Shown here in pieces: positions 3,641 to 45,670 of a stretch of DNA of 60,602 bases. The notes beneath the pieces are model-generated. The model saw nothing but the letters and a program-made list of their open reading frames with translations. It searched no databases and had not been told where the DNA came from. This DNA is from an uncultured Oscillospiraceae bacterium (lineage in GTDB: Bacteria > Bacillota > Clostridia > Oscillospirales > Oscillospiraceae): NCBI GenBank assembly GCA_947629755.1, contig CANREY010000001.1:1-60602 (forward strand), read 5' to 3'. The position numbers were made by a program, and so were the translations under genes. Every line of letters starts with the position of its first letter. Within the stretch, counting starts at the first letter, position 1.

Positions 3641-3958
3641 GGAGCGTACGGCCTTTGCCGGAGGCAAAGGCCGCCCCGCCGCAAACGCGGCGGGGTTTTA
3701 TTTTGACGTGAAGGAAACCCCTGATGGGTTTCCTCCACAGCTCTTTCCTTTCCGATTATTTCGGCAAACCCCTTGATCCAATCAATTTTCGCGGCGACAT
3801 GCGCGTCGCGAAAATTACCTCTTGTTTTGCGGAGTGTACGGCCCTTCGGGCCGTGCGCGTAGCAAAACGGCAGGAATAAATTTTTTGAATTTCGCAAAAT
3901 TCAAAAAATTTATTCCTCTCGCCCCCATTGCATCAAAAGGCTTCGCCTTTTGATGCAA
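3641..3958 (-). repeat. Multi-hairpin intergenic element, copy A (reverse orientation)
   Basis: Core H4 (3784-3816, AATTTTCGCGGCGACATGCGCGTCGCGAAAATT) and H3 (3824-3868, GTTTTGCGGAGTGTACGGCCCTTCGGGCCGTGCGCGTAGCAAAAC) are near-identical to copies at 38356-38440 and 34788-34878, and to the reverse complement of 5529-5613. The H2 and H1 positions (3875-3914, 3928-3958) hold different perfect hairpins. Confidence 0.8.
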
Positions 3959-4158: not shown

Positions 4159-5370
4159 ATGAGAAAATTGGCACTCGCGCTGGCGCTGGCTCTTACGCTG
4201 TCGACTACGGCGCTGGCGGCGGACACGGTCATGGAGCAGGAGACTGACGAGGAGGTACCGGAGAGCGTATTTGACGACTCCGTCATATCCACCAGCGCCG
4301 ACGGGCTGGAGGTACCCGCGCCCTCGGCCATACTCATGGAGAAGGAGACGGGGACGGTGCTCTGGGAGAAAAATGCCGACGAGCGCTTAAGGCCCGCCTC
4401 CGTGACTAAGGTCATGACCATACTGCTCATCGTCGAGGCCGTGGACAGGGGGGAGCTGAAGCTCTCCGACACCGTGACATGCTCGGCCCACGCCGCCGGA
4501 ATGGGCGGGAGCCAGGTGTTTTTGGAGGAGGGGGAGCAGATGACCCTCCAGGAGATGCTCAAGTGCATCGTGGTGGCCTCCGCCAATGACGCCGCCTGCG
4601 CGGTGGCGGAGCATATGGCGGGCTCAGAACAGGCGTTCGTGGCCAGAATGAACGACAGGGCGCGGGAGCTGGGCATGGCCAACACAAATTTCACGAACTG
4701 CACCGGCCTCATGGACGACCCGGAGCACCTGACCACAGCCCGCGACATCGCCATAATGAGCCGGGAGCTCATACGCCACGACTGGATAAAGGAGTACACC
4801 ACCATATGGCTGGATACCATAAGAAACGGGGAATTTGGCATCTCCAACACAAATAAGCTCATCAGGTTTTACGACGGGGCCACGGGCCTCAAGACGGGCT
4901 ACACCTCCTCAGCCGGCCACTGCCTGGCGGCCACGGCCCAGCGCGACGGGGTGGAGTACATCGCCGTGGTGCTCCACTGCGCCTCCAGCTCCGACAGGTT
5001 TGAGAGCGCCAAGACACTTTTAAGCTACGCCTTCGGGGCCTACACCGTGGCGTCGCCCACCCCCAATGAGGTCCTGCCGCCAATACCCGTAAAGCTTGGG
5101 AAGGTCCACAACGTCCAGCCGGTCTTAAGTCAGGAGCCAAAGCTCTTAGTCAAAAAATCCGACGCCGGGAGCCTTGAGGTCACCGTAGATATGGCCCCGG
5201 AGCTCACCGCCCCGGTGGAGGCGGGAGCGGAGGTGGGCGTCATGACGGTCACCCTCGGCGGTAAGACCCTCTCCGAGACCCCCATAATCGCCGGCGACAG
5301 CGTGGAGCGCCTCACATGGTGGGACGTGACGAAATCGATTCTCAACCTGACCATCTACGGTGAGAGATGA
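4159..5370 (+). CDS. D-alanyl-D-alanine carboxypeptidase (serine-type, PBP5/6 family)
   Basis: 403 aa with a signal peptide. Active-site triad motifs are SVTK (SxxK), SAN (SxN) and KTG. RBS AAAGGAGGG lies upstream of the ATG. Confidence 0.88.
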   Translation: MRKLALALALALTLSTTALAADTVMEQETDEEVPESVFDDSVISTSADGLEVPAPSAILMEKETGTVLWEKNADERLRPASVTKVMTILLIVEAVDRGELKLSDTVTCSAHAAGMGGSQVFLEEGEQMTLQEMLKCIVVASANDAACAVAEHMAGSEQAFVARMNDRARELGMANTNFTNCTGLMDDPEHLTTARDIAIMSRELIRHDWIKEYTTIWLDTIRNGEFGISNTNKLIRFYDGATGLKTGYTSSAGHCLAATAQRDGVEYIAVVLHCASSSDRFESAKTLLSYAFGAYTVASPTPNEVLPPIPVKLGKVHNVQPVLSQEPKLLVKKSDAGSLEVTVDMAPELTAPVEAGAEVGVMTVTLGGKTLSETPIIAGDSVERLTWWDVTKSILNLTIYGER

Positions 5371-5409
5371 CCCACCAAAAGGGTCGCGCCCTCGGCGCCA
5401 ACCAAAAAA

Positions 5410-5678
5410 GCGGACGCCCTCGCGTCCGCTTGCCTGTCGGAAAAGGCCTGCGGCCTTTTCCGACAACGGGGAACGTGCGGAAAAATTTGCGAAAAGGTCT
5501 GCGGACCTATTCGCAAATTTTTCCTGCCGTTTTGCTCCGCGCACGGCCCGTAGGGCCGTACACTCCGCAAAACAAAAGGTATTTTTCGCAAGGCGCATGT
5601 CCTTGCGAAAAAAATTTGATTTGGGGTACGTTTAACAGGGGCTTGTCAACAGTCTGAAGCGGACGCCCTCGCGTCCGC
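5410..5678 (+). repeat. Multi-hairpin intergenic element, copy B, with flanking duplicated terminator hairpin
   Basis: GCGGACGCCCTCGCGTCCGC occurs at 5410-5429 and again at 5659-5678. The 229 bp between them comprises H1 5436-5464, H2 5483-5520, H3 5529-5573, H4 5582-5613 and the terminal CTTGTCAACAGTC at 5642-5654. Confidence 0.85.
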
Positions 5679-5700
5679 TTTACTATTCTTATATAACACC

Positions 5701-6405
5701 TTACACCGCGAATCCCCCGTCTACGCTCAATACCTGCCCGGTGATGAACGACGCACTGTCGGAGCATAGAAACGTGACGGCGTTTGCCACGTCCTCCGCC
5801 GTGCCAAGGCGTGTGAGGGGCGTGTCGTCCACGAGGGAGGACAGCGTGTCAGGGGAGAGGGCGGAGTTCATATCGGTGTCGATGACGCCGGGGGCCACGC
5901 AGTTTACGGTGATGTTTGAGGGCCCCAGCTCCTTGGCGAGGGCCTTTGTAAGGCCGATGAGGGCGGCCTTGCTGGCGGAGTACGCCACCTCACAGCTCGC
6001 GCCACGAATGCCCCACATGGAGCTTATTATGACTATCCTGCCCCATTTTTCGTGGATCATATGTGGGAGGGCGGCGTGTATGAGGTTGTAGGCTCCGTCC
6101 ACGTTCACGGAGAAAACGCGCCGCCAGTCGTCAAAGCTCGTGTCGGTAAAGAGCTTCTGCATGGCGATACCGGCGTTGACGACAAGAATGTCAATGCTTC
6201 CGGCGACGCCGAACATATCCCTGACGGCCTCCGGGTCCGATACGTCAGCCCTGACCGCCGCGCCGCCGATGTCGCTTGCCAGCTTCTCCGCCGCCTCACG
6301 GCTTTTACGGTAGTTTACGATCACGCTGTGTCCCGCGTCCGCAAGGGCCTTCGCGCAGGCCGCGCCAATACCGCGGGAGGCGCCGGAGACAAGGGCTTTT
6401 TTCAT
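5701..6405 (-). CDS. SDR-family oxidoreductase (3-oxoacyl-ACP reductase FabG-like)
   Basis: SGASRGIGAA cofactor motif and YSASK (YxxxK) catalytic motif. Start moved to the ATG of MKKALVSG, which is preceded by GAGGTG. Confidence 0.85.
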   Translation of the reverse strand: MKKALVSGASRGIGAACAKALADAGHSVIVNYRKSREAAEKLASDIGGAAVRADVSDPEAVRDMFGVAGSIDILVVNAGIAMQKLFTDTSFDDWRRVFSVNVDGAYNLIHAALPHMIHEKWGRIVIISSMWGIRGASCEVAYSASKAALIGLTKALAKELGPSNITVNCVAPGVIDTDMNSALSPDTLSSLVDDTPLTRLGTAEDVANAVTFLCSDSASFITGQVLSVDGGFAV

Positions 6406-6863: not shown

Positions 6864-8123
6864 GTGAGCTTGGAATACGATGAGGCGCTGGCCTTTATCC
6901 ACTCAAGACGCCACGGCGGCCCGGACCTTGAGAGAATGAGAGTTATTCTCGACCGTCTCGGCGCGCCGGACAGGGAGCTTAAATTCGTCCACGTGGCCGG
7001 GACCAACGGCAAGGGCTCCGTGTGCGCCTATATGGCGAATATTTTAAGGTGCTCCGGCTACAAGACCGGGCTTTTCACCTCGCCCTTCGTCCGCAGATTT
7101 AACGAGCGGATCGAGATAAACGGCGAGGACATACCGGATACTGAGCTCGCCAGCGTCACGGAGACAGTCCGCGCCGTCCTCGGCGAGTTTGAGGATAAGG
7201 TGGCGGAGTTTGAGCTCGTGACGCTTATCGGGCTTACCTATTTTGCCCAAAAGCGGTGCGATATAGTTGTCCTTGAGGTGGGCATGGGCGGCGTACACGA
7301 CGCCACCAACGTCATCGAGCACAGCGAGGTCTCCGTCATGACGGCCATCGGCCTTGACCACACGCAGTATCTCGGAAACACCGTGGAGGAGATAGCCAAG
7401 GTGAAGGCCGGGATAATCAAGGATAACGGCCGGTGCGTGGCGTACACCGATCCGGTTGGGGTCATTGAAAAGACCTGCCGTGAGCGCAATGCCGTATTCA
7501 CGGCCCTCGACCTTGACGCGCTTTGCGTAAAAAGCGCGGGACTTTCCGGCACATGCTTTGATTTTGGCTCCCTCACCGGCCTCAAAACGCCCCTCCTCGG
7601 CTCCCACCAGCCAAAAAACGCGGCCTTGGCCCTGACGGCGGTGGAGACGCTGAAAAAGCGGGGCTGGGATATAACCGACGAGAGCCTTCGCCGGGGAGTC
7701 GCCACGGTCGTCTGGCCGGGGAGATTTGAGCTTTTGCGGACACGCCCCAACGTCATAATCGACGGCGGCCACAATCCACAGGCGGTGGAGGCGGCGGTCG
7801 GGGGCCTTGATGAGTATTTTCCCGGAGAAAAGGCCGTCTTCGTCCTCGGCGTCATGGCTGACAAGGACGTGGAGGGCATAATTGAAAGGCTTGCCCCCGT
7901 GGCCGAGAGCTTCATATGCGTGGAGCCCCCGGCCCCACGGGCCCTTAAAAATACGCTTTTGGCGAAGATGCTGACTGACCGCGGACTTGCGGCCGAGACG
8001 GCCGACAGCGTCGCCGGCGGTGTCGCCGCCGCCGTGAAGCTTGCGGGGGAGGGCGGCACAGTCTGCGTGCTGGGCTCCCTATACATACTTGAGGAGGCCA
8101 GAGCGGCGGCGCTTTCAACGTGA
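6864..8123 (+). CDS. folC: Bifunctional folylpolyglutamate synthase / dihydrofolate synthase
   Basis: 419 aa with a GTG start after AAAGGAGG. Mur-ligase P-loop VHVAGTNGKGS. Overall FolC-like layout (DGGHNP motif). Confidence 0.88.
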   Translation: MSLEYDEALAFIHSRRHGGPDLERMRVILDRLGAPDRELKFVHVAGTNGKGSVCAYMANILRCSGYKTGLFTSPFVRRFNERIEINGEDIPDTELASVTETVRAVLGEFEDKVAEFELVTLIGLTYFAQKRCDIVVLEVGMGGVHDATNVIEHSEVSVMTAIGLDHTQYLGNTVEEIAKVKAGIIKDNGRCVAYTDPVGVIEKTCRERNAVFTALDLDALCVKSAGLSGTCFDFGSLTGLKTPLLGSHQPKNAALALTAVETLKKRGWDITDESLRRGVATVVWPGRFELLRTRPNVIIDGGHNPQAVEAAVGGLDEYFPGEKAVFVLGVMADKDVEGIIERLAPVAESFICVEPPAPRALKNTLLAKMLTDRGLAAETADSVAGGVAAAVKLAGEGGTVCVLGSLYILEEARAAALST

Positions 8124-20993: not shown

Positions 20994-21030
20994 ATTACCC
21001 AATTAAAATAGCGGACGCCCGGCGTCCGCT

Positions 21031-21163
21031 TACTCATTCCCCGTCCCTCGTCCCGCCCGCAGGCGAAAAGCCTCCCCTTGCTAAAGGGGAGGACAGCCGC
21101 GAAGCGGCTGGAGAGGTTCCGCCCCTCCCTTGGGAGGGGGCAGGGGGTGGGCCGAACAACCCA
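21031..21163. repeat. G-rich hairpin repeat family 2, locus b
   Basis: Contains the 21-mer CTCGTCCCGCCCGCAGGCGAA (21047-21067, identical to 34762-34782). Also hairpins CCTCCCCTTGCTAAAGGGGAGG and CCCCTCCCTTGGGAGGGG (21122-21139), and GGGGTGGGCCGAA (21144-21156). Confidence 0.65.
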
Positions 21164-24088: not shown

Positions 24089-24157
24089 ATAAATCTCCGA
24101 CGCGAGGGCGTCCGGTCCTCGGCGGGGGAGCAACATGATTCAAAGGAGAATTTTTGC

Positions 24158-26162: not shown

Positions 26163-26171
26163 ACCAAAAAA

Positions 26172-26440
26172 GCGCCCCGACCGGGGCGCTTTTTTGGTTG
26201 TCGACAAAGGCCCAAGGGCCTTTGTCGACAATGGAGAACGTGCGGAAAAATTCGCGAAAAGGTCTGCGGACCTATTCGCAAATTTTTCCTGCCGTCACGC
26301 CGCGCGCGCCGCAAGCGGCACACTTGCGTGACAAGAGGTAATTTTCGCGACGTACATGCCGCCGCGAAAATCATTTGAAATGGAGTTTTACGCTTATCTG
26401 TGGTTTGCCAACAGTCTAAAAAGTGCCCCACTGGGGGTGC
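26172..26440 (+). repeat. Multi-hairpin intergenic element, copy C, with flanking related terminator hairpins
   Basis: Element at 26198-26416 (H1 TTGTCGACAAAGGCCCAAGGGCCTTTGTCGACAA at 26198-26231, ending CCAACAGTC). Flanked by GCGCCCCGACCGGGGCGC (26172-26189) and GTGCCCCACTGGGGGTGC (26423-26440), each with an A-run and a TTTTTTGGT tail. Confidence 0.85.
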
Positions 26441-26493
26441 TTTTTTGGTGAGCGGAGAATTGCGGCCGGGGTGGGACAAATATTCTCTTTTAA

Positions 26494-28210: not shown

Positions 28211-28972
28211 TCATATTAGACTTCTTATTATCGCGCGGTTCTCGGCAAAATCGAGGAATGCCGTATGTATCCCGATATTTCCCGCGATCTCAAGCTTCCT
28301 TCTAACGGAATTGGCGTCGTCCCACATGACGAGCCTCACCCGGTCCCGGTCGCGAAAGCTCGTGTAGTTCGCCTCGAAGCACTGAGAGTAGAATACTCTG
28401 TCTGGCGCTACGCCTCCGGGGACCGGGGAGGGGAGACGGGAGGGCAGGCTGCGGCGGGCGGGGAGGAGGAAATCGGCGGGCCGTGTGTCCAGCCGGAGGG
28501 CTATTTTCTCAGGGCCGTATTTGCCCGCAAGCAGGCGGAGCCTGTCGGAAAAGGGGGAGCTGTAACTCTGGGCGTTTATAAGGAGCCCACGTTTACCCGG
28601 CACGCCGCCGTAGCCCTCAGGCAGGTAAAGCGTGAGCCCGCGGGGCGCCAACCTGTCGGCCATGAGCTCCGAGAGCGAGAGCAGCGCCGGCGTGGGCCGA
28701 GGGAGATCAAGAACGACGCCGGAGAAGCCGTAAATGAGGCAAAAGCGAAGTATATTCTCAACCAGCGCCTCCTGGGGGCCGAAGCCCGTGAGGCCGTGAC
28801 AGGCTATCTCCACCAGCCTCTCGCCCCGGAGGGCCGGGAGCGGGCCGAGACGCGTGAGCTTAAGTCCCCGCGTCACCTCACAGGCCATGATGCTCACTGG
28901 CCCATAATTTATGGCCTCCGATGCCAGCTCAGGCGGCGCGGAGAGATAAATTTTAAAATCTTTCATGTACAT
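28211..28972 (-). CDS. Hypothetical protein with weak GH18 (YaaH/YdhD-like) TIM-barrel resemblance, catalytic DxE missing
   Basis: 253 aa. YGFSGVVLDLPRP sits where GH18 enzymes have (F/Y)DG(I/V)D(I/L)DxE. The C-terminal VMWDDANSVRRKLEIAGNIGIHTAFLDFAEN resembles the GH18 C-terminal strand pattern. This is similarity judged by eye only. Confidence 0.4.
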   Translation of the reverse strand: MYMKDFKIYLSAPPELASEAINYGPVSIMACEVTRGLKLTRLGPLPALRGERLVEIACHGLTGFGPQEALVENILRFCLIYGFSGVVLDLPRPTPALLSLSELMADRLAPRGLTLYLPEGYGGVPGKRGLLINAQSYSSPFSDRLRLLAGKYGPEKIALRLDTRPADFLLPARRSLPSRLPSPVPGGVAPDRVFYSQCFEANYTSFRDRDRVRLVMWDDANSVRRKLEIAGNIGIHTAFLDFAENRAIIRSLI

Positions 28973-34671: not shown

Positions 34672-34782
34672 AAAAGGGGAGGGTTTAGAACCCTCCCCTA
34701 CGGCGATTTTAGGAGATTTGCCCAAACAACCCGTAGGGGCGGGTTCCAAACCCGCCCACTCCTCGTCCCGCCCGCAGGCGAA
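34672..34782. repeat. G-rich hairpin repeat family 2, locus c
   Basis: GGGGAGGGTTTAGAACCCTCCCC hairpin, CCCAAACAACCC (compare GCCGAACAACCC at 21151-21162), GGCGGGTTCCAAACCCGCC hairpin, and the 21-mer CTCGTCCCGCCCGCAGGCGAA (34762-34782). Confidence 0.65.
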
Positions 34783-34787
34783 TTCAA

Positions 34788-34917
34788 TATTTTTCGCAAG
34801 GACATGTGCCTTGCGAAAAATCCCTCTTGTTTTGCGGAGTGTATGGCCCTTCGGGCCATGCGTGGAGCAAAACGGCAGAAAAAATTTCCGGAATTGGAAT
34901 TCCGGAAATTTTTTCGC
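34788..34917 (-). repeat. Multi-hairpin intergenic element, copy D (truncated: H4-H3-H2 only)
   Basis: H4 is ATTTTTCGCAAGGACATGTGCCTTGCGAAAAAT. H3 is GTTTTGCGGAGTGTATGGCCCTTCGGGCCATGCGTGGAGCAAAAC. The H2 position holds AAAAAATTTCCGGAATTGGAATTCCGGAAATTTTTT. The copy ends in TCGCACG (compare the conserved CCGCACGTTC linker). Confidence 0.8.
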
Positions 34918-34926
34918 ACGCATACC

Positions 34927-38265: not shown

Positions 38266-38284
38266 GCCCACCGAAAAGCCAAAA

Positions 38285-38562
38285 GCCCGCTCAAACCTGA
38301 GCGGGCTTTAAACTGTTGACAAACCCCAGATAAGCGTAAAACCCCATTTCAAATAATTTTCGCGGCGACATGTGCGTCGCGAAAATTACCTTTTGTTTTG
38401 CGGAGTGTACGGCCCTTTGGGCCGTGCGCGGAGCAAAACGGCAGGAAAAAATCGCAAATAGGCCCGCAGGCCTTTTTGCGATTTTTTCCGCACGTTCCCC
38501 CTTGTCGACAAAGGCCAACGGACTTTGTCGACAATCTAAAGCCCGCTCACGTTTGAGCGGGC
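38285..38562 (-). repeat. Multi-hairpin intergenic element, copy E (reverse orientation), with flanking duplicated terminator hairpin
   Basis: Element at 38312-38535 (ACTGTTGACAAACCCC ... TTGTCGACAAAGGCCAACGGACTTTGTCGACAA). Flanked by GCCCGCTCAAACCTGAGCGGGC (38285-38306) and GCCCGCTCACGTTTGAGCGGGC (38541-38562). Confidence 0.85.
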
Positions 38563-38583
38563 TTTATCACTATACTATAAGCT

Positions 38584-38844
38584 TTAATATTGGTTTTCCG
38601 CTATAAGCTTTAATTTCTGCTCCCTCGTAAGTCCCTTTATCGCAAGCTCCCTTTTAAGGGCGGAGGACTTATCGAGTGCCGGCTCGGAGTACACAAGCTC
38701 CACGGGCTCATGGGAGCGGGTATACTTGGCTCCACGGCCTGAGCTGTGGGCCTTTAAACGGCGATCAAGGTCGTTCGTTATGCCGGTATAGAGGCTCCCG
38801 TCGCCGCACCGGAGGATATAGACGCGCCACTCTCTCAAGCTCAC
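38584..38844 (-). CDS. GIY-YIG nuclease family protein (small stand-alone URI domain)
   Basis: 86 aa. WRVYILRCGDGSLYTGITNDLDRRLKAHSSGRGAKYTR is the GIY-YIG core. Overlaps the upstream lipoprotein gene by 4 nt. Confidence 0.85.
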   Translation of the reverse strand: MSLREWRVYILRCGDGSLYTGITNDLDRRLKAHSSGRGAKYTRSHEPVELVYSEPALDKSSALKRELAIKGLTREQKLKLIAENQY

Positions 38845-44745: not shown

Positions 44746-45573
44746 TCAGCCTTTAAAAGCAGAGATAACATCATCGGCGTTCACGATCTCGGAGTTGGTC
44801 ATTATAAAGAGTATAAGACCGTCCTTGACCGCGTACTTTACAGTGTCGGCGGAGACGCATATCTGCCAGCGCGGGTTAGCGTTCCGCTCAAGCTCCTTTG
44901 CGTACTCCCCGGCGTCAACGCCCTCGGCGGGCTCAATGAGGAGTATGACATGGGCGATGGAGCCCATCATGGGGGCGTTCACCGCCACCTTCGTGCCCTC
45001 GGTATAGGCCATACCGCCAAACCAGTTGGAGAACATGCCGGAGCTGGAAAGGGAGTGGTTATCCACCATCATCTCGCCGGTCTTGCCCTCACAAATGGCG
45101 GCCAGCCTGTCGACCAGATCTCCCGCGTCAGTCACGGGCACGTCCTGCGTCTCTCCGCCGCCGTTACCGCCGGGGGTGATTATACCGCCCGGCCCAAGCT
45201 GGAACCCCGGCCCGATGGGCGGGTGGCTCTCACTCGGCTCAGTGGTGGGGGGCTCCGTGGCCGGAGGCTCGGTGGACTGAGGCTCAGTCTCCGGGGGCTG
45301 GGTGTCAGCGGGCTTCGTCTCAGGAGGCTCCGTCTCCGTGGGGTTAGTGCCTTCAGTCTCCGTAGGCTCCGTGGCTTCGGTCTCCGTAGGCTCCGTGGCT
45401 TCGGTCTCCGTAGGCTCCGTGTCCTCAGTCTCCGCAGGCTTCGTGCCCTCGGTATCATTGGGCCTCGTGTCCTCGGTTCCCGTGGGCTCCGTCACGCCCT
45501 GCGTCCTGCCGCCGCAGGCGGCCAGCGCCAAAACGAGCGTCAGGGCGAGTATTATCGCGACGATCTTTTTCAT
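44746..45573 (-). CDS. Lipoprotein with T/E/P-rich tandem-repeat linker and the same C-terminal domain as 44195..44713
   Basis: 275 aa from MKKIVAIILALTLVLALAA|C. The linker contains TEPTETEA repeats. Confidence 0.65.
   Translation of the reverse strand: MKKIVAIILALTLVLALAACGGRTQGVTEPTGTEDTRPNDTEGTKPAETEDTEPTETEATEPTETEATEPTETEGTNPTETEPPETKPADTQPPETEPQSTEPPATEPPTTEPSESHPPIGPGFQLGPGGIITPGGNGGGETQDVPVTDAGDLVDRLAAICEGKTGEMMVDNHSLSSSGMFSNWFGGMAYTEGTKVAVNAPMMGSIAHVILLIEPAEGVDAGEYAKELERNANPRWQICVSADTVKYAVKDGLILFIMTNSEIVNADDVISAFKG
45337..45480 (-). repeat. In-frame 24-nt tandem repeat (about 6 units, 2 perfect) encoding TEPTETEA
   Basis: Plus-strand units are CGTAGGCTCCGTGGCTTCGGTCTC x2 (identical), flanked by degenerate units (CGTAGGCTCCGTGTCCTCAGTCTC, CGCAGGCTTCGTGCCCTCGGTATC, ...). 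Confidence 0.8.
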
Positions 45574-45670
45574 ATCTATGTATTCCTTTCGGCTGATTTG
45601 CCCCACATATTGGGGTATCCGGCCTTAAGACTACATATAGATATGAAATGTTCCCGAAAAAGGAAAATTT

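Follow-up and report, generated by a model that had tools for sequence, protein, structure and literature searches.

Among described mobile elements, those closest in behaviour to the one reported here are IS1272 and TnSha1 (IS1182 family), which insert in both orientations into terminator hairpins that share no sequence; the hairpin is partly deleted and nothing is duplicated (PMC4923244, PMC5678879). The authors of the IS1272 work proposed a cruciform model in which one route, 'pathway b', an attack on the 5' feet, duplicates the whole stem-loop (PMC4923244, PMC5678879). The element described below was found in a stretch of 60,602 nucleotides from an uncultured Oscillospiraceae bacterium, hereafter the window. 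Like IS1272 it targets stem-loops or terminators of any sequence and joins them at the hairpin stem or foot, and the whole-stem-loop duplication that it displays is exactly the one predicted by pathway b. IS1272, however, is a 1.9-kb autonomous insertion sequence that deletes or replaces the hairpin, whereas this element measures 0.2 kb, lacks a transposase and duplicates the hairpin. Its targeting works like that of IS1272, with the opposite outcome; the likeness is one of behaviour. Direct repeats of 0-60 bp are recorded for the IS1182 family in the ISfinder table.

Several other systems share part of these properties. The classical MITEs (Correia, RUP, ERIC, bcr1, Nezha) are also small, non-coding, multi-copy and intergenic, with terminal inverted repeats, target duplications and stable hairpins. 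Their duplications, however, are short, fixed (2-10 bp) and made at sequence-defined targets, whereas those of the element span 19-34 bp and are set by the target hairpin; a classical MITE forms one long fold-back, in contrast to the four independently covarying hairpins found here. REP and BIME sequences resemble the element as hairpin mosaics with conserved linkers at the 3' ends of genes, and IS1397, ISKpn1 and IS110/IS1111 relatives likewise use palindromes as insertion targets. Insertion sequences that target REPs insert at a fixed position of the loop or stem, with duplications of 0-4 bp. REPs themselves, unlike the element, are single palindromes of ~35 nt with a GTAG head, moved by RAYT without duplication. 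In the CRISPR Cas1-Cas2 system and in casposons, integration is staggered across the two borders of a unit, often a palindrome, which is thereby duplicated in full; the repeat is fixed and sequence-defined and the integrase is known, whereas the targets of the element are unrelated in sequence and the DNA examined showed no cas genes. Class C group II introns home just downstream of the stem-loops of intrinsic terminators. Such an intron is a ribozyme longer than 0.7 kb, carries a reverse transcriptase and duplicates no target, unlike the element, for which Rfam gave no group II intron hit. In the literature searched, the duplication of a whole stem-loop appears only as the hypothetical IS1272 pathway, and no MITE or insertion sequence of this kind is described.

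Copy B and its empty site

The best-defined insertion in the window, copy B (5408-5680), lies between two convergent genes. The initial annotation, made from the letters alone, had named them as carboxypeptidase and SDR, and the Pfam assignments agree (Peptidase_S11 ending at 5370, adh_short at 5701). The features of the locus are the following.

4159-5370, plus strand: Peptidase_S11 D-Ala-D-Ala carboxypeptidase, left neighbour
5408-5431, no strand: left target copy AAGCGGACGCCCTCGCGTCCGCTT, 10-bp stem and 4-nt loop, keeping the upstream A-run; minus-strand terminator-like
5432-5656, plus strand: element copy B, GCCTGTCGG...CAACAGTCTG, 225 bp, without conserved or credible ORF
5432-5446, plus strand: left terminal inverted repeat GCCTGTCGGAAAAGG, doubling as the 5' arm of H1, from the comparison of 12 insertion junctions
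5435-5465, plus strand: hairpin H1, TGTCGGAAAAGGCC-TGC-GGCCTTTTCCGACA
5473-5475 (ACG) with 5528-5530 (CGT), plus strand: basal extension of H2, spanning a TGC/TGC internal loop
5479-5524, plus strand: hairpin H2, 16 of 17 pairs covarying
5529-5573, plus strand: hairpin H3, with the invariant internal motif CGCGC / CACACT
5582-5612, plus strand: hairpin H4, TTTTTCGCAAGG-CGCATGT-CCTTGCGAAAAA
5642-5656, plus strand: right terminal inverted repeat CTTGTCAACAGTCTG, from the junction comparison
5657-5680, no strand: right target copy, keeping the TTTACTATTCTT tail; plus-strand terminator-like
5701-6405/6414, minus strand: adh_short SDR (short-chain dehydrogenase), right neighbour, convergent with the carboxypeptidase

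A search of the window returned exactly two occurrences of the 20-mer GCGGACGCCCTCGCGTCCGC, in the same orientation at 5410-5429 and 5659-5678, as first reported; the next-best match has 3 mismatches, and at least 3 matches were obtained in 0 of 100 shuffles. The full repeat is an exact one of 24 bp (AA, the 20-mer, TT; 5408-5431 and 5657-5680) and encloses 225 bp. The A-run noted at the left copy and the T-rich tail noted at the right one correspond to terminators called on opposite strands by a consensus scan: on the minus strand the left copy (hairpin then TTTTGGTTGG), on the plus strand the right copy (hairpin then CTATTCTTAT). All four hairpins that had been read inside the element are present, with coordinates correct to within a few bases. 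The hairpins that the same annotation had mentioned elsewhere as a caveat, AGCGGACGCCCGGCGTCCGCT and CCGGACGCCCTCGCGTCGGA at 21011-21029 and 24096-24115 (minus strand), are present as well; their stem is nearly that of the copy B target, a terminator stem type that recurs in the window.

An orthologous site carrying a single hairpin had been predicted beforehand as a test of the insertion. It was found in L084, a metagenome contig whose carboxypeptidase is 98% identical. This site consists of CAACCAAAAAAA-GCGGACGCCCTCGCGTCCGC-TTTACTATTCTT, that is, one hairpin without the element, and reads ...CAACCAAAAAAAGCGGACGCCCTCGCGTCCGCTTTACTATTCTTAAATAAC..., with the A-run upstream of the hairpin and the T-rich tail downstream; the convergent genes are 83 bp apart, versus 331 bp in the window. 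No relative with both hairpins and without the element, an arrangement that would have contradicted the insertion, was found. At a syntenic locus of 78% identity, where the carboxypeptidase is followed by the convergent SDR, BofA and Mur ligase genes, a 100-bp spacer holds one different hairpin and lacks the element. In another species the terminator of the same gene received an independent insertion, with an exact duplication of a different 32-bp hairpin, CGCGCGGGCCGCCCCACCAGGCGGCCCGCGCT.

The target of copy B is also close to another junction. A strain variant with an identical carboxypeptidase (L002, 1790-2003) departs from the window right after CCAACCAA (~5401), a few nucleotides before the 5' foot of the terminator hairpin of copy B. 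Beyond this point it continues with unrelated DNA (TGGGCATTAATCTAGAAGC...) containing two 29-nt direct repeats, GCTAAGCAsGAATTGnTCCAAGTTGGGAC. This foreign DNA may be the end of another mobile element that used the same target.

A family that duplicates whole hairpins

A conserved 22-mer of the element occurs at at least 73 loci in a collection of species-representative genomes and, among the matches listed, a single chance hit aside, every locus belongs to one of 11 uncultured Oscillospiraceae genomes of the rabbit gut. A profile search of ~0.54 Mb of related loci yielded 63 near-full copies, and the length of the element is 202-227 bp. It was not found in the viral contigs of IMG/VR or the plasmids of PLSDB; a first scan of JGI metagenomes, with a pattern limited to one H1 variant, found none and a second scan gave a single chance hit within a coding region. 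Rfam returned no match to the element at the gathering score or at permissive thresholds, only two tRNAs being matched in the window; weaker hits on the element are to generic hairpins, with E ≥0.005 and bit scores that fall far short of the cut-offs. No ORF is conserved in the element because the hairpin modules are swapped between copies. With its terminal inverted repeats, its target duplication and empty site, its small size, its many copies and the lack of a transposase ORF, the element is a new, unnamed MITE-like family.

The termini deduced from a comparison of junctions are 5'-(C)AGnYTGTCGAAAAAGG ... TTTTTTGACAAnCTG-3' and form imperfect inverted repeats of ~15 bp; those of copy B are given as 5'-(C)AGnYTGTCRAAAAA ... 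TTTGTCAACAGTCTG-3'. In the 12 junction pairs the left end CAGnYTGTCRAAAAA corresponds to the reverse complement of TTTTTTGACAAnCTG at the right end, and the left half of the repeat is the 5' arm of H1. The right end of the window's own copies is TTTGYCAACAGTYT, the variant of the window genome being ...GGTTTGTCAACAGTYT. The imperfect terminal inverted repeat suspected in the window is thus genuine, and clearer in other genomes.

The window contains five copies, the following four in addition to copy B.

3766-3958 (start approximate), minus strand: copy A, diverged, between convergent tRNA-Gly genes
26167-26449, plus strand: copy C, a 219-bp element (26199-26417) flanked by a duplicated 32-bp hairpin sequence (26167-26198 and 26418-26449, 6 mismatches)
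34782-34920, minus strand: copy D, partial (H4-H3-H2 only), adjoining a REP-like hairpin with a GTAG head, without duplication
38282-38566, minus strand: copy E, a 227-bp element (38311-38537) flanked by a duplicated 29-bp hairpin sequence (38282-38310 and 38538-38566)

The initial annotation had reported the same architecture at these four loci. The element is indeed present at all of them, but the duplication only at C and E, which are full-length; A and D are diverged or partial and have none. Copy A carries other versions of H1 and H2 and lacks the right terminal repeat. For copies C and E no empty site was obtained, every strain variant retrieved being occupied and L095 representing a different genomic context. 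A further match at 28540 was discarded as a chance hit within coding sequence. The syntenic tRNA-Gly spacer of Lapin-033 bin58 (L068, 2120-2260) holds a fragment of the element, half of H3 plus H4, in the orientation opposite to that of copy A, pointing to an independent insertion or an inversion in the same spacer.

Direct matches between the left and right flanks were found in 11 of the 62 near-full copies and in one further locus (L077), with scores of 14-31; the null, 948 mismatched flank pairs, had a maximum of 13 and no score of 15 or more. The 12 duplications measure 24, 32, 29, 22, 34, 22, 28, 29, 29, 25, 19 and 32 bp (range 19-34) and each holds a different hairpin, with a stem of 6-14 bp and a loop of 3-6 nt. 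On the 5' side, 11 of the 12 duplications start 0-1 nt from the stem foot; on the 3' side the boundary lies 0-4 nt past it, and the orientation of the loop is unchanged wherever both hairpin copies are identical. Since the length of the duplication is set by the structure of the target, no transposase with a fixed stagger would produce such lengths. Moreover, the flanking hairpin is not part of the element consensus, because it differs at each of the 12 insertions.

These data bear on the alternative that a tandem pair of terminators existed beforehand and was later separated by the insertion, or that the hairpin belongs to the element itself. The hairpins of similar stem at 21011-21029 and 24096-24115 could be cited in its favour, but the empty site has a single hairpin, all 12 insertions have their own distinct hairpin pair, and mismatched flank pairs never match each other. 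This alternative is considered extremely improbable and, for copy B, is refuted by the empty site of L084.

The association with hairpins is not limited to the duplicated copies. When both termini could be located automatically, all 16 copies adjoined a hairpin foot on at least one side, the foot being within 5 nt on both sides in 11, on the right only in 3, on the left only in 2 and on neither in 0. A hairpin foot is thus found at 27 of 32 termini, versus 12-14% (~13%) of 1675 random intergenic positions of the same loci; such structure-dependent insertion at hairpins is the behaviour described for IS1272 of the IS1182 family. Most copies are nevertheless non-canonical, lacking the right terminal repeat and the duplication and lying directly against stop codons.

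The mismatches between duplicate hairpins are unevenly placed: 11 of 14 are in 4-nt loops (four in copy E, where all 4 loop bases differ, four in copy C, two in L072 and one in L060) and the stems are nearly identical. A simple fill-in followed by neutral drift does not predict such a concentration in the loops.

The element had first been presented as MITE/REP-like, targeting terminator hairpins and duplicating them. The targeting and the duplication stand, on the strength of L084 and of the 12 insertions; the REP-like mechanism does not, because the element has terminal inverted repeats and target duplications, whereas REP and BIME sequences have a GTAG head and neither of these.

The hairpin core and its gene context

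In an alignment of 62 copies, 97.6% of the cells that make up H2, H4 and the outer stem of H3 are paired, versus 74.5% after column shuffles and 38-60% when the partners are slid; two-sided changes occur in 27 of 35 pairs (470 cells versus 136 expected). H2, H3 and H4 each occur as unrelated sequence versions, those of H2 being for instance GGAAAAATTCGCGAAAAGG..., GGAATAAATTTTTTGAATTT... and GGACCCGGGATTTGAAATT..., and the motif CGCGC/CACACT inside H3 is constant throughout, as are the linkers ACGTGCGG, CCTGCYGT and ACAARAGGKA. The two strands are not equivalent, as the reverse complement of the copy B orientation is the more stable in 60 of 62 copies, by a mean of 10 kcal/mol. H3 alone accounts for 8 kcal/mol of this preference, seen in 62 of 62 copies, and G.U pairs number 279 on the better-folding strand versus 129 on the other. 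The copies being related, neither the covariation nor the folding counts are independent. In one subfamily the tip of H3 is also enlarged by ~110 nt of conserved, GC-rich sequence (…CTCGTCGTCGCTGATGCCGCTTTACCTCGCCCTCCC…GGGGGCCCC), located as follows.

L066, 1110-1235: H3-tip expansion
L031, 1355-1470: H3-tip expansion
L031, 2690-2790: H3-tip expansion

Nested insertions were considered for these split copies and rejected, the copies belonging to the subfamily with the expansion.

The position of the element relative to genes is also biased. Using GC3-filtered ORFs, a gene reads into its 5' end only in 28 cases, into its 3' end only in 13, into both in 10 and into neither in 13, and in 23 of 38 cases the stop codon falls between -22 and +5 nt relative to H1. 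Most copies abutting a stop codon are devoid of the right terminal repeat or duplication, and some occupy orthologous positions across species-level genomes; they look older and immobilised. In such copies H1, which resembles a bidirectional terminator with its A-run, GGCC stem and T-run, may be the terminator of the gene.

Taken together, the paired and compensatory positions, the exchange of H2, H3 and H4 versions between fixed linkers, the conserved H3-tip expansion, the strand preference maintained through conserved H3 G.U pairs, the insertions common to species-level genomes at orthologous sites and the gene-context bias would suit a mainly functional structured RNA module kept by the host, whether it stabilises 3' UTRs, works as a terminator or insulator, or is a small RNA; selection on the RNA would maintain its four hairpins and conserved linkers, and mobility would serve only for its spread. 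The better-folding strand is, however, antisense to the adjacent gene in most copies, no convincing promoter was detected inside the element or its tail, Rfam gave only the noise of generic hairpins, and copy B is present in one strain and absent from another. Furthermore, even if selection played no part, the arms could stay complementary through template-switch correction of quasi-palindromes. We hold this account to be possible, if on the unlikely side.

An orthologous site upstream of an apparent purD gene, recognised by eye from its N-terminal sequence, is occupied in two genomes (L004, ~7029-7075; L075, ~815-853). In L004 the upstream gene runs into H1, whose 5' arm shares sequence with the final codons and the stop codon (TCATCATTAA) and whose 3' arm is complementary to that coding sequence. 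The outer stem of H1 in L075 is wholly different and yet paired, which suggests templated correction or strong selection for pairing.

Proposed insertion mechanism and candidate enzymes

The observations comprise an insertion polymorphism, the duplication of whole hairpins, insertion at hairpin feet, inverted repeats at the termini and hairpins that covary. From these we infer, as a probable though by no means certain reading, a non-autonomous MITE moved by a transposase that is supplied in trans and reads the shape of its target, not the sequence. The putative enzyme would be of the DDE class, IS1182-like. The target would be an intrinsic terminator whose palindrome has probably been extruded into a cruciform. 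The simplest reading is a DDE-type strand transfer at this cruciform, where the four strand crossings would lie next to one another in space. If, on each strand, one 3' end of the element were joined to the 5' foot of the hairpin, the stagger would equal the whole palindrome, and gap repair would copy the whole hairpin, leaving one copy on each side of the element. If both ends were instead joined at the same foot (one 5' foot and the opposite 3' foot), the element would be inserted beside an unduplicated hairpin, and it is to this attack that the left-only and right-only classes are proposed to be due. An attack on both 3' feet would delete the hairpin, as described for IS1272 and TnSha1.

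Duplication lengths that track the size of the hairpin (19-34 bp, with boundaries at the stem foot) would record the sites of strand transfer and point to a shape-recognising insertion machinery, for which the family gives a dozen worked examples of whole-stem-loop duplication and a true empty site. Each insertion converts a bidirectional terminator into two one-directional halves and brings ~200 nt of very stable structure into 3' UTRs. At copy B a single bidirectional terminator was divided so that the left half serves the minus strand and the right half the plus strand, and ~225 nt of highly structured sequence now extends both convergent 3' UTRs. The two direct hairpin copies also pair with each other because each flank is a palindrome; in the predicted folds of both strands a stem of ~21 bp closes the element, which may favour precise excision. 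If it is real, a terminator-targeting transposase independent of sequence would be a useful tool, and a hazard for synthetic constructs that rely on terminators.

The window contains no transposase, as stated at the outset: Pfam scans of its ~50 ORFs revealed only housekeeping or unknown functions, without transposase or integrase. In ~580 kb from 11 related genomes no transposase, no longer element with the same termini and no multi-copy ORF was found, and the terminal motifs gave only chance hits outside the known copies. This absence is weak evidence, because the assemblies are fragmented and copies of insertion sequences tend to be lost from them. ORFs of atypical GC3 were examined as candidate transposases and rejected, being defence genes or unknowns. 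Among atypical genes, those of L047 (559-1725) and L060 (6001-7998), encoding a GmrSD_N plus HNH endonuclease (GC3 0.36) and a large DNA methylase, look like horizontally acquired defence genes.

The conservation of the core (covariation, linkers and one-strand preference) is more than needed by a passive MITE. A bolder reading, judged unlikely, is that of an undescribed structure-guided integration, in which an enzyme so far not connected with transposition, or an unknown branch of transposases, would attack the extruded four-way junction in any geometry. The duplicated, left-only and right-only insertions would then be the resolved geometries of the junction, and the hairpin core, with its strand preference and an invariant G.U motif, would be a functional single-stranded nucleic acid, serving mobility or domesticated as a terminator or 3'-UTR module.

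Another integrase that measures across the palindrome, Cas1- or casposase-like, or a structure-specific recombinase or nuclease followed by repair, would also explain a duplication equal to the whole palindrome and varying with its length, formally the same as the duplication of a CRISPR repeat, and would agree with the failure to find a DDE transposase. An 86-aa protein with a GIY-YIG domain is encoded at 38584-38844 (minus strand), 18 nt past the right flank hairpin of copy E. Structure-specific nucleases are found among GIY-YIG enzymes, and the small gene could be counted on this side; its position is probably a coincidence. However, the window and the related DNA examined showed no gene for Cas1, a casposase or a recombinase, the 15-bp terminal inverted repeats suit a DDE element, and the IS1272 precedent already ties a DDE family to hairpin targets, so that this alternative appears improbable.

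Finally, the hairpin mosaic with conserved linkers, reminiscent of BIMEs, and the clear preference for folding on one strand are features expected if an HUH/Y1 transposase (IS200/IS605 relatives or REP-RAYT) moved the element as single-stranded DNA by reading hairpins on one strand. A second repeat family of the same genomes can be added to these arguments, namely REP-like hairpins with a GTAG head such as CCGTAGGGGCGGGTTCCAAACCCGCCC (window 34722-34760 and 21040-21060; L068 380-600), which often directly adjoin truncated four-hairpin copies (L020, L033, L042, L045, L027). Y1 transposition, however, makes no target duplication, and 12 copies have duplications of 19-34 bp; the element has terminal inverted repeats, and both orientations coexist within one gene-strand block of the window. 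Young copies are largely duplicated and largely without the conserved 5' target tetranucleotide typical of Y1, and no Y1 or RAYT gene was seen in the window and the related DNA examined. Mobility of this type is decidedly improbable for the element, for which the shape-recognising transposase acting in trans is preferred.

Two minor observations concern other repeats of these genomes. About seven 24-nt tandem repeats at 45290-45500 of the window belong to an ORF without Pfam hit (44746-45606, minus strand), where they encode a repetitive protein segment. The GTAG-head family, for its part, is distinct from the four-hairpin element and might represent a REP/RAYT-type system in Oscillospiraceae.
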